From NCBI GenBank assembly GCA_039091335.1, contig JAWCME010000002.1:13263-77262 (forward strand): a stretch of DNA of 64,000 bases. The letters are read 5' to 3'. The DNA comes from Candidatus Aenigmatarchaeota archaeon (GTDB taxonomy: Archaea; Aenigmatarchaeota; Aenigmatarchaeia; CG10238-14; SCSR01). Within the stretch, counting starts at the first letter, position 1, and each line of letters begins with the position of its first letter. Shown in pieces: positions 3,855 through 59,005 of this stretch. Both the position numbers and the translations under genes were made by a program. Under the pieces are notes generated by a model. That model was not told the origin of the DNA. It searched no databases and worked only from the letters and a program-made list of their open reading frames with translations.

Positions 3855-4276
3855 ACCTTTCTCACAATACACGCCACAGGGGGCTTGACTATCAAGTCAC
3901 AAACAACATCAAAAACTACATCTTTAGTGATGTTTTTAATTTTTTTCTCCCCCCTATAGCTTTTTATTGTTAGTGAAGTATAATTTTCTAAAACTTCTTG
4001 TAAGAATATTTGGTCAGGAAATCTATTTGCAATTTCTTCTAAAAAATTTATTTGTTCTCTACACTCTATGCAATTCTTTTGATAATAATATTTTATTATT
4101 GTTTTTCCATTTTCTATTAAAAACATTTCCTTCTCAGGCCCGAGTTCGTAATCCACTATATTCTTCTCAGGAAGATTTATTTTGTTTTTTTCTGTTGTCC
4201 TAAACGAGATAAATGTAAAAGTTGAGAATACCATCAGTATGATAAAGAATATTGCAATTAGGCTCTTTTTCTCCAT
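3851..4276 (-). CDS. Membrane-anchored hypothetical protein with CxxC (thioredoxin-like)
   Basis: N-terminal TM helix, CIEC motif. Confidence 0.55.
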   Translation of the reverse strand: MEKKSLIAIFFIILMVFSTFTFISFRTTEKNKINLPEKNIVDYELGPEKEMFLIENGKTIIKYYYQKNCIECREQINFLEEIANRFPDQIFLQEVLENYTSLTIKSYRGEKKIKNITKDVVFDVVCDLIVKPPVACIVRKV

Positions 4277-50471: not shown

Positions 50472-51211
50472 TCACTTAATTTTTTCCGTCTCTTCTCTAC
50501 TTAACTTTCTAAATTTTCCATCCTTTTCTATTATTGCAATATCTATACTCTCTTCTTTTCCAATTTTTTCTGATTTTGATAGAATATCAATTGCAAGTCT
50601 TATTGCTTCCTTTCTGTCCATTCCCTCCCTCCATTTCTGTCTCAATGTTTTGTTTGCTAGCGTCCCACCCCTTCCTATGCCGTATGCCTTCCACTCATAA
50701 AGCATACCAGAAGGATCTGATTCTATTAGATGCGCTCCAGTTTTGTCAACACCTCCAATAAGAATGGTTGTTCCAAAGGGTCTTAGTCCTGCATATAATG
50801 TGGAGAGTTGCATTCTATCACCTATTGCCCTTGCAATACCCCAAACATCTATAGGTTCTTCATAGGTTATTTTATGTACTTGTGCCTTTATTCTTGCTTG
50901 GTTTATCAAAACCCTAGCATCAGCTAACAACCCAGCTGAGACAGAACCTATGTGTTCATCTATCTGGAATATCTTCTCCACGGATTCTGAAACGATTAAT
51001 GTGCCTGTTGGCTTTATTGTTGCAAGTAGCACACCGTCCTTAAAGATAATTCCAAGGCAAGTTGTTCCTCTTTTGACAGCTTCTTTTGCATATTCTACTT
51101 GAAATAGTCTTCCGTCTGGGGAGAAGACAGCAATTGTTCTATCATAACCCATATGAGCAACCTTCAGCTATTAGCTGAAGGTTAATACTCTGGAAGTATT
51201 TGTGGTGGCAT
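50472..51211 (-). CDS. psmA: Proteasome alpha subunit; exons 51211-51185 and 51152-50472
   Basis: Spliced product [31 protein letters not shown] (235 aa); GAGGTGA Shine-Dalgarno 6 nt upstream of ATG 51211. Confidence 0.92.
51153..51184 (-). other. Putative BHB mRNA intron (32 nt) in psmA
   Basis: Outer stem CCA/TGG, helix GAGT/GCTC, bulges AT^T and AT^A, perfect 11-bp inner stem; starts with an in-frame TAA. Confidence 0.85.
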
Positions 51212-51287: not shown

Positions 51288-51626
51288 CTATAAACCCAAG
51301 GATTTTATTGTTCCAGATACTTTTAATATTTTAAAAATTACCCTTGAGTCTCCTAGTCTTGAGATAAGACCTAAACAAGAAATAACTTTTTGCACAGATT
51401 TGTTATTGCACTTTATTACTCCAACTTGTTCTTTTTCCTTATACAAATTCTTTATTATCCACAAAGAAGTTTGAGAAAAGCCATGCTCTCCAAAAAACTC
51501 TAAGCAGGAATTAATTATTGCGTGTTCTAAATCAGAATAGACTATTGGTTCTTCGGAAATAACCTTAAATTTTATGTATCTTTCTTTTTCCCTTAGCGTG
51601 GGCAACAAATTCTTTAGTTTTTTCAT
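51288..51626 (-). CDS. rnp2: RNase P protein Pop5/Rpp14
   Basis: PTLREKERYI, VSGTIK. Confidence 0.88.
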   Translation of the reverse strand: MKKLKNLLPTLREKERYIKFKVISEEPIVYSDLEHAIINSCLEFFGEHGFSQTSLWIIKNLYKEKEQVGVIKCNNKSVQKVISCLGLISRLGDSRVIFKILKVSGTIKSLGL

Positions 51627-56874: not shown

Positions 56875-57210
56875 TCAAATTTTTTCCCTTATTTTTGTTT
56901 CTAATTCTTTCAGCTTTTCGTTTGTTTTTGCTTCGCTTTTCTCTAAACTTTTTATTCTTATTTCTATAGATTCTTTTGCTTCACTAAGCTCCTTTTTAAG
57001 TTCTTCAACGGGCTTTTTTATCATTACCTGCCCAGCAATTTTATATGCTTCATTTTCCTTTGTTTTGTTTAACTCTTCAAGCGCCCTCTCTATCTCAAAA
57101 ATTTGCATGTTTAAACTTTCTTTCTGTAGCAGTATTGTTTGAAGTTGCTGTTGATAAGCCTGAAATTGTGTTATCATATTTTTTGTTTCTTCAGACATCT
57201 CTTCTGGCAA
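56875..57210 (-). CDS. pfdB: Prefoldin beta subunit
   Basis: Coiled coils flanking AYKIAGQVMIK. Confidence 0.88.
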   Translation of the reverse strand: MPEEMSEETKNMITQFQAYQQQLQTILLQKESLNMQIFEIERALEELNKTKENEAYKIAGQVMIKKPVEELKKELSEAKESIEIRIKSLEKSEAKTNEKLKELETKIREKI

Positions 57211-57241
57211 AAAATCACCACATATTATTTAATTGTATAAA

Positions 57242-57398
57242 CTATATAGATTCAACCCTTTTTATTACTTCTGGTCTCGTTTTTGCCAAAATTCTATGGG
57301 CCCTGCTTGCTTTAAAGCAAGCAAGTAAACCCGCAATATGGACATCTAATGTTTTCTTCCACATTCACAATTTTCTTACATTTTACACACTTATACAT
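57242..57398 (-). CDS. rpoP: RNA polymerase subunit Rpo12 (P); exons 57398-57327 and 57295-57242
   Basis: Spliced 41-aa product MYKCVKCKKIVNVEENIRCPYCGFRILAKTRPEVIKRVESI; canonical position between L37ae and prefoldin. Confidence 0.9.
57296..57326 (-). other. Putative BHB mRNA intron (31 nt) in rpoP
   Basis: Helix GGGT/GCCC, bulges TT^A and AT^A, 10-bp inner stem with TTAA loop; in-frame TAA. Confidence 0.88.
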
Positions 57399-57399
57399 A

Positions 57400-57618
57400 T
57401 CACTCCCCCTTTAAGTAATATGCTGGACCAGCAAACTTTAAACCGCATTTTTTACATTTCCATATTCCACAAGCAACCCTTTTAACATATGGTAAATTAC
57501 ACTTTGGACAAACATATCTTTTTCTTTCCTCCTTTTCAATCTTAGACACAGTTAGTCTAATCTTCCTTCCGTATCTTGTCCCAAACCTTCCTGCTGAGCC
57601 AACCTTTTTCTTAGCCAT
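57400..57618 (-). CDS. rpl37ae: 50S ribosomal protein L37ae
   Basis: [26 protein letters not shown]. Confidence 0.95.
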
Positions 57619-57879
57619 TTATTTCACTATTCTGAATTCTTTTTTCCCCTTTATGTTTTCCAGTATCTTTATTAACATCCCTTCCGTTATTTCGTTTTTT
57701 ATTTTTCCTGTTTGAAAAAGCTGGATTAGATACAACTCCACTTGTGCGGCAAGTTCTGGTTTTACCATCCTAACTCTACCGAGCCTTTCTAATGCTTCCT
57801 TTGAAAGTATTTTTTTCATCAAAATTCTTTTTAGTTCTTCAATTTTTTTCATCTCCTCTATGCTGATTTCTTCGTTCAC
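57619..57879 (-). CDS. DNA-binding protein, PDCD5 family
   Basis: LSKEALERLGRVRMVKPELA. Confidence 0.9.
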   Translation of the reverse strand: MNEEISIEEMKKIEELKRILMKKILSKEALERLGRVRMVKPELAAQVELYLIQLFQTGKIKNEITEGMLIKILENIKGKKEFRIVK

Positions 57880-58292
57880 TCCTTGCTCACCTCAAACGCT
57901 ATTCTGTCTAGAAGTTTTTTCCCCTTGTTTGTTATTACTCTTCCCCCCCTTTCTTTTTTCAAAAGTCCAGCCCTTTCAAGCTGTTGTAAGATCTTTCTTA
58001 TTATATTTCCAGAGGCTTTTCTAAACTGTGGTGGGCGATGCCCCCTCCTTTTTCTCCCCCCGTAATATGTTCTTAATCTTTCAACGCCGACTGGACCATC
58101 AATATAAATTCTTCTGAGAATGGATGCCGCTCTAATATACCAAAAGTCTTTTTGAAATGGAGGTCTTTCTTTATGAGATCCTGACTTTACGAAATTTGCC
58201 CAGTGAGGCGTAGATATTTCTTTAAAAAGTTTAAGTTCCTCCTTTAACTTATTCACGAGTTTATGTGGGTTTACTTCCCTTGCTGTTACCAT
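57876..58292 (-). CDS. rps19e: 30S ribosomal protein S19e
   Basis: WYIRAASILR, GPVGVERL, ILQQLE. Confidence 0.95.
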   Translation of the reverse strand: MVTAREVNPHKLVNKLKEELKLFKEISTPHWANFVKSGSHKERPPFQKDFWYIRAASILRRIYIDGPVGVERLRTYYGGRKRRGHRPPQFRKASGNIIRKILQQLERAGLLKKERGGRVITNKGKKLLDRIAFEVSKE

Positions 58293-58908: not shown

Positions 58909-59005
58909 TGGGTCCGACCGGATTCGAACCGGTGACCTCCGCCGTTCTGATACATTCGTCAGGGTTCCGCTCTCTCTCGACGTCCTACCACTAGACCACG
59001 GACCC
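58909..59005 (-). tRNA. tRNA-Val(GAC) with two introns (29/30: 58965-58977; 37/38: 58945-58956)
   Basis: Acceptor GGGTCCG/CGGACCC, T arm ACCGG-TTCGAAT-CCGGT; removing both introns gives TCGCC-CTGACGC-GGCGG. Confidence 0.88.

Follow-up and report, generated by a model that had tools for sequence, protein, structure and literature searches.

According to the accessible part of a paper from 2020 (PMC7714728), the intron of cbf5 is the only intron of the bulge-helix-bulge (BHB) kind that is named inside an archaeal coding sequence. The cbf5 pre-mRNA carries it in Desulfurococcales and Sulfolobales (Watanabe 2002 and Yoshinari 2006, as cited in the available text of PMC2738675), and for these introns the excerpt states a cleavage rule, by which each bulge is cut between its second and third residues. 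The available text of PMC7714728 also describes a BHB intron in the 5′ UTR of the HVO_1309 mRNA of Haloferax volcanii, which was confirmed both in vivo and in vitro. Relaxed introns of the HBh′ form are described for archaeal tRNA and rRNA in the part of PMC5829648 at hand, which also links versions of the tRNA-splicing endonuclease EndA with an extra loop, found in DPANN archaea, to disrupted tRNA genes. Here, we report a 31-nt insert in the rpoP gene of an aenigmatarchaeal genome. Judged from comparisons of DNA sequences, it is very likely a further archaeal BHB mRNA intron of this known kind and would be the second case within a coding sequence beside cbf5.

RpoP, also termed Rpo12, is a zinc-ribbon subunit of archaeal RNA polymerase of approx. 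7 kDa. We examined a stretch of 64,000 nucleotides, referred to as the window throughout, from Candidatus Aenigmatarchaeota archaeon, which we take to be a tiny hot-spring archaeon. The features of the locus are collected in Table 1. In the window, as in the four relatives L003, L015, L042 and L049 with L37ae-like ORFs upstream, rpoP directly follows L37ae. A preliminary description, made from the sequence alone, had stated that no ORF is called at the rpoP position between L37ae and prefoldin beta. This agrees with our analysis, in which the gap holds no full ORF, only two frames 31 nt apart. The start codon ATG (57396-57398, minus strand) opens an ORF of 28 codons (57312-57398, minus strand; MYKCVKCKKIVNVEENIRCPYCGFTCLL) that then runs into a stop. 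The Shine-Dalgarno-like motif before this ATG is a putative ribosome-binding site. The insert lies between the Phe codon (codon 24) and an Arg codon and corresponds exactly to the 31 nt quoted in the preliminary description.

Table 1. Features of the rpoP locus and its neighbors, in window positions
Feature	Position	Strand	Basis or remark
S19e	57876-58292	minus	Pfam
PDCD5-like dsDNA-binding protein	57619-57879	minus	Pfam
L37ae	57400-57618	minus	PF01780, 1.9e-26
Gap without a full ORF	between L37ae and prefoldin beta	minus	
Shine-Dalgarno-like GGGGGAGTG	57401..57409	minus	just upstream of ATG, overlaps the end of L37ae
rpoP exon 1, codons 1-24, MYKCVKCKKIVNVEENIRCPYCGF	57327..57398	minus	CxxC...CxxC zinc ribbon
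31-nt insert ACTTGCTTGCTTTAAAGCAAGCAGGGCCCAT, proposed BHB intron	57296..57326	minus	phase 0; frame-0 TAA stop inside
rpoP exon 2 RILAKTRPEVIKRVESI plus TAG stop (57242-57244)	57242..57295	minus	+1 frame relative to exon 1
Predicted helix H, 5′ strand GGGT, last bases of exon 1	57329..57332	minus	MFE fold
Predicted 5′ three-base bulge TTA	57326..57328	minus	predicted cut between 57327 and 57326
Predicted intron hairpin h′, 10-bp stem CTTGCTTGCT/AGCAAGCAGG, loop TTAA	57302..57325	minus	MFE fold
Predicted helix H, 3′ strand GCCC, inside the intron	57298..57301	minus	fold and covariation
Predicted 3′ three-base "bulge" ATA	57295..57297	minus	predicted cut between 57296 and 57295
Prefoldin beta	56875-57210	minus	PF01920, 4.6e-20
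UPF0147, SepF	after prefoldin beta in gene order	minus	Pfam

All four zinc-binding cysteines (CxxC...CxxC) are encoded by exon 1, while the sequence R-I-L begins exon 2. Compared with PF03604 (Zn_ribbon_RPAB4), exon 1 alone covers positions 1-25 of 32 and scores 15.7 bits, under the cut-off of 24 bits; many intact relatives likewise stay under this cut-off, which 13 of 41 genomes exceed. We also used a profile of our own, built from 27 contiguous rpoP genes of relatives, each encoding 41-43 amino acids and running straight across the position at which the window gene breaks. Against this profile, exon 1 scores 42.3 bits over positions 1-28, and exon 2 matches positions 25-40. A second intact rpoP was not found in a six-frame search of the whole assembly (569,737 bases, 87% complete), and a search of the genome for other copies of the insert, allowing up to 5 mismatches, returned none.

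The genome behind the window was assembled from a metagenome and is fragmented into 29 contigs, a circumstance that would favor an assembly or sequencing artefact, with the 31 nt absent from the DNA of the organism. Against this, a Logan contig of run X1 (2310 nt), which was assembled independently, spans positions 57079-57700 with 0 differences and 0 gaps, indicating that the insert is part of the DNA and not the product of one assembly. Run X1 is probably the source sample. Different inserts at the same site in three other distinct genome sequences and in two metagenome contigs (see below) also argue against an artefact, which we regard as scarcely credible. Among the contigs of the four runs compared, only that of X1 covers the insert, unspliced and as DNA; the contigs of X2, X4 and X7 do not reach the insert, and none of the contigs shows a spliced junction, a result without bearing on expression. 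X4 and X7 are the runs labelled metatranscriptomic, and the sequencing-run search returned none recorded as RNA that hold the region.

Split Rpo12 matches with hairpin inserts, which the preliminary description had envisaged in related genomes, were recovered by combining profile and pattern searches. At family rank, 59 of 70 genomes carry a full-length contiguous rpoP, five carry a split gene (the genome of the window, G000, and G073, G074, G075 and G079) and six show no match. At order rank (118 genomes), 102 genes are contiguous and six are split, the additional one in a genome from another family (G101). At class rank, at least 338 of 371 genomes have an rpoP match, and the pattern search found six split genes. 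The two exons of each split gene match in different frames. The class-wide pattern, applied to all 371 genomes with the insert length left free between 20 and 50 nt, returned only the same six genomes, all with 31 nt. With the length fixed, a search of one genome per species of all prokaryotes yielded the same relatives and one chance bacterial match, and a search of metagenome contigs yielded seven stretches, two of which are true rpoP genes with new inserts (L091 and L097). The other five were rejected as unrelated zinc-ribbon genes with poor pairing. Chance matches to the pattern pair at only 2-3 of the 4 helix positions and 4-6 of the 10 stem positions.

Because G074, G075 and G079 are identical over the rpoP region, they were counted once. 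This leaves six distinct split sequences: the window, three from genomes (representing three genera and two families of Aenigmatarchaeota) and the two from metagenome contigs. In all six, an insert of 31 nt follows codon 24, while the insert sequences differ. Precisely empty sites, which read straight through (e.g., TAT AGA), occur in relatives of the same genus: in G019, G072, G076, G077 and G078 as compared with the split G073 and G074, and in the contiguous genes of G100 and G102 as compared with the split G101. An apparent split of rpoP in G310 was discarded since its two parts lie on separate contig ends, with no intron involved, and weak PF03604 matches in G028 and G033 are other genes, both genomes having a contiguous rpoP.

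The three identical loci (L044, L045 and L046, on G074:C136, G079:C144 and G075:C25) agree over at least 196 nt and come from genomes listed as different species. The three assemblies are larger and more contaminated, and the contig may represent one population binned three times.

Such genes will be reported as missing or broken by gene callers. The suggestion in the preliminary description that introns cause an apparent loss of small RNA polymerase subunits holds marginally for rpoP, but the effect is small, the split gene being rare in the class (6 of 371 genomes). Among the matches listed, 33 of the 371 class genomes have no rpoP match at E ≤ 1e-4; a gene this small could have dropped out of those that are incompletely assembled.

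We then considered the fold of the RNA. In the MFE fold of 81 nt around the insert (z = –2.27), the end of exon 1 pairs with the 3′ part of the insert in the helix GGGT/GCCC, followed by the bulge TTA and the 10-bp stem. A central 4-bp helix with three-base bulges on opposite strands is thus predicted, as in a BHB motif, and this helix is paired in all six sequences. Outer helices on both sides, as in the canonical hBHBh′ form, are not present: the helix on the intron side is strong (9-10 bp), while the exon side consists of one C-G pair followed by mismatches. The 3′ bulge is closed only by this pair (C57333-G57294), which the MFE fold does not form. The predicted motif therefore fits a relaxed, HBh′-like bulge-helix-bulge and not the canonical one. 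As a side observation, all six sequences have A as the last of the three bases of the 5′ bulge, and the 3′ bulge reads A-N-A in five of them and T-T-A in L091 (columns 25, 54 and 56).

Applied to the window, the bulge cleavage rule places the cuts after 57327 and 57296, which is the frame-restoring junction and exactly the one proposed in the preliminary description; the same rule restores the product in all six sequences. Removal of the insert was predicted there to yield the Rpo12 signature CPYCGFRILAK, and the joined product of 41 amino acids indeed contains it and resembles the intact relatives, including the RpoP tail pattern G-x-R-[IV]-[LF] after the cysteines. We scored 31-nt deletions at shifts from –6 to +6 against the profile of the 27 relatives, the only profile used for the joined product. 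Shifts 0, +1 and –1 give one and the same product, which reaches the top score of 73.6 bits and covers profile positions 1-40 of 42; the product of shift –2, in which Tyr replaces Phe at codon 24, equals it at 73.6 bits. The relatives themselves score 71.2-90.9 bits.

If the fold matters to the cell, substitutions should preserve it. The six sequences align over 79 columns without gaps, and the structure was taken from the fold of the window. Across the 14 pairs, 94.0% of the 84 cells form standard pairs, and nine of the 14 changed on both sides. The covariation score of 0.710 compares with a mean of 0.262 after shuffling and was reached by none of 500 shuffles. When the 3′ partners are slid by 1-3 columns, pairing falls to 30-56%. 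In the intron stem, eight of the nine counted pairs change on both sides across the six sequences. The 4-bp helix (pairs 19-53 to 22-50) is 100% paired, and one of its pairs changes on both sides, from G-C to A-T. The exon bases of this helix are at the same time codons (Gly GGN and the next base), and the third codon position therefore covaries with the intron: the third base of the Gly codon forms G-C in four sequences and A-T in two. The neighboring helix pair switches between T-G and C-G. The outer pair 18-57 is C-G in all six sequences but is constrained by coding. RNAalifold, unaided, predicts the same helices and further proposes only a distant exon-exon helix that lacks covariation. 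The sample is small, with six sequences, and L091 and L097 were retrieved by a pattern that prescribes the length together with A in the first and CC in the 28th and 29th position of the insert; with the four genome-derived sequences alone, the covariation result is the same in kind.

These data bear directly on a programmed +1 frameshift, in which ribosomes would slip on the sense codon just ahead of the in-frame stop and produce an RpoP of 51 amino acids with an insertion of 10 residues. A site of the prfB type reads CTT TGA, and the stop context in the window, CTT TAA A, resembles it; G074 has TTT TAG and G101 GTT TGA. The length of the insert is 3n+1 in all six sequences and constant at 31, a constancy that splicing alone does not require, and in five of the six the insert has no stop in the exon-2 frame. 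Yet the motif of the window is not conserved in the other five sequences, and no slippery site is common to the six (CTT TAA, TTC TGA, TTT TAG, GTT TGA, CCT TAG and ACT TGA). The position of the stop varies as well (codons 5, 3, 3, 5, 11 and 2), the insert of L091 contains a stop in the exon-2 frame, and the frameshift product scores 57.1 bits against the same profile, compared with 73.6 for the spliced one. Moreover, the substitutions compensate at the level of RNA and do not conserve a peptide, pointing to a structure that is removed, and a frameshift gives no role to the helix that joins the end of exon 1 with the 3′ end of the insert and has bulges of exactly three bases. We consider a frameshift highly improbable.

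Translational bypassing, for which gene 60 of phage T4 is the precedent, would have the ribosome take off before the insert and land behind it. The hairpin and an in-frame stop soon after the break are in line with such hopping. In none of the six sequences, however, do take-off and landing codons at the edges of the insert match: exon 1 closes with the codon TTT, TAT or CAT, and the insert, read in the exon-2 frame, closes with CAT, CAC, CAA, CAG or CTT. Bypassing would also leave the 4-bp helix with its bulges unexplained, and its probability appears negligible to us.

If the insert is removed, exon 2 should be maintained as coding sequence. In all six pairs of the four genome-derived genes, pN in exon 2 (0.07-0.24) is well below pS (0.62-1.03), with pN/pS at roughly 0.1-0.33, indicating that R-I-[LF] is the frame in which exon 2 is translated. 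Judging from these ratios, purifying selection acts on exon 2 within this frame. For exon 1, comparisons with the window were left out because they are misaligned by a one-codon indel.

This selection, seen in every pair of intron-bearing genes compared, is hard to reconcile with a pseudogene, that is, a dispensable or vanishing rpoP inactivated by insertion of a hairpin, for example of a palindrome resembling a terminator or of a small mobile element. Such a reading could draw on the 28-amino-acid product of the unspliced gene, on the C-terminus of exon 2 in the window (…VESI), which departs from the nearly invariant Ala of the relatives, and on the failure to find EndA in the assembly (see below). 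On the other hand, six distinct lineages keep the site, the length and, through compensatory changes, the fold; the start codon and the Shine-Dalgarno-like motif are intact; no second copy of rpoP is present; and the insert is unique in it. Inactivation of rpoP is in our judgment improbable.

With regard to the enzymes that splicing would require, the ligase RtcB is encoded in the genome, its gene being cut by the end of contig C25 (37091-37747), which affects the N-terminal half. For EndA, neither a PF01974 match nor, by tblastn with EndA of six relatives, any hit below E = 0.1 was found in this assembly; since the assembly is only 87% complete, this is not proof of absence. EndA was found in 25 of 25 relatives searched. 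Most of these proteins are single units of about 180-236 amino acids (about 190 amino acids), and the genomes of five relatives contain longer EndA ORFs of about 246-409 amino acids with two domain matches. The single-unit class of EndA has long been regarded in the literature as strict.

A genome-wide scan for BHB motifs returned 4867 raw candidates, of which 1017 remained with a coding filter and 44 with a stricter filter for helix, bulge and stem. The strict scan recovers the rpoP insert and inserts in the rRNA genes. Naming further introns in protein-coding genes from the 1017 filtered candidates was rejected as too noisy. In the 23S rRNA gene, two adjacent helix-bulge-stem elements of 38 and 31 nt are located on contig C1 (84048-84121, minus strand; L098 about 4049-4122), where the Rfam alignment holds 76 bases as compared with 7 in the model, an excess of 69. 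The 31-nt element is built like the rpoP insert: it combines a 4-bp helix and three-base bulges with a 10-bp stem that is capped by a TTAA loop. At 1746 nt (C1:92675-94420, L098 12676-14421, minus strand), the 16S rRNA gene exceeds its model of 1478 nt, and the scan places a 56-nt BHB-like candidate within it, at C1:93438-93493.

Taken together, the interruption of the gene, the fold, the compensatory changes, the selection on exon 2, the empty sites and the 23S inserts suggest, with a probability that we put at roughly 85%, that the rpoP transcript contains an intron of the archaeal BHB kind, 31 nt long and in phase 0; cutting, joining and the enzymes involved are what we infer from these. 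The interruption by such an intron, as claimed in the preliminary description, is thereby supported by the fold geometry, the covariation of six inserts, the selection on exon 2 and the empty sites. Within the pre-mRNA, exon 1 would contribute its final four bases, GGGT, to a 4-bp helix with GCCC, which lies close to the intron's 3′ end; this helix would sit between two three-base bulges, one on each strand, with the 10-bp intron hairpin stacked on one side. Cleavage by EndA behind base two of each bulge and ligation of the exons by RtcB would then yield a frame of 41 codons, in which ...CPYCGF is directly followed by RILAK....

As far as the available parts of the cited papers describe them, the known systems share several features with this proposed intron. 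Like that of cbf5, it is a short intron within a protein-coding gene with an "unconventional", relaxed BHB, in which predicted cuts between the second and third bulge bases restore the frame; its presence is patchy and lineage-specific, and the gene is mis-annotated as broken or frameshifted. It differs from the cbf5 case in the gene (rpoP), in the phylum (Aenigmatarchaeota of the DPANN archaea instead of Crenarchaeota), in the length fixed at 31 nt and in the endonuclease: the hosts of the cbf5 intron possess heterotetrameric EndA, whereas the relatives of the present genome encode single-unit EndA of about 190 amino acids. Splicing of cbf5 was shown by cDNA, while that of rpoP is predicted from DNA. 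The case of HVO_1309 likewise makes an mRNA a substrate of the tRNA-splicing endonuclease outside tRNA and rRNA, as is predicted for rpoP; unlike that leader intron, the rpoP intron would lie within the coding sequence, and the reading frame would depend on its removal. With the HBh′ introns of tRNA and rRNA, the rpoP insert has in common the 4-bp helix, the three-base bulges, an intron-internal helix and a weak second flank, and differs in that its host is an mRNA.

In the literature on archaeal rpoP introns, on BHB introns in protein-coding genes of DPANN archaea and on introns of Aenigmatarchaeota, we found no description of this case; supplementary intron predictions could include it. A second case, supported by covariation, would mean that splicing of mRNA by the tRNA machinery is not a crenarchaeal oddity. 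The rpoP insert would also provide a compact substrate of 79 nt for studying how single-unit EndA of DPANN archaea handles relaxed motifs.

The distribution of the intron raises the question of its history. The exons of the intron-bearing genes are nearest to those of intron-less genes from their own genus or family (with the G074 row excluded because of its GTG start), indicating that the whole gene was not passed around, and lateral transfer of the entire gene was rejected on these grounds. The insert of the window shares 25 of 31 bases with that of G101 from another family, as compared with only 19 of 31 with that of G074 from its own. At 31 bases, an insert identity of 25/31 is, in such a comparison, not distinguishable from identity at the level of the exons. 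To account for the patchy presence, the intron must either have been lost precisely more than once or have entered one and the same site more than once.

One tentative explanation, which we consider rather unlikely, is that the rpoP insert belongs to a family of minimal 31-nt BHB introns moving among essential RNA and protein genes of DPANN archaea. Its members may share one build, namely a single base, then a 10-bp stem capped by a tetraloop, then 4 bases of the helix and 2 more. The same build in the 23S rRNA of this genome would fit such a family, as would rpoP sites that are filled or precisely empty within single genera while the exons follow the species groupings. If true, it would imply ongoing site-specific gain, for example by a reversed EndA/RtcB reaction or by recombination with invaded alleles, or else repeated exact loss, and production of an RNA polymerase subunit would depend on the tRNA-splicing machinery.

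Two further elements were observed in the window. A tRNA gene at 58909-59005 (minus strand) is read by ARAGORN as Pro(CGG) in one mode and as Leu(CAG) in another, and its anticodon arm measures 36 nt compared with 11 nt in the model. The surplus implies that about 25 nt are inserted at a non-standard position; the exon borders could be placed neither by eye nor by folding. The second is a 32-nt element at 51153-51184 (minus strand), which has a 4-bp helix, three-base bulges and an 11-bp stem. It sits in the spacer after an ORF at 51288-51626, which is Pop5-like by eye only, and ends at the ATG of the proteasome alpha gene (50472-51152). This element could be a leader intron, a terminator or a product of chance.
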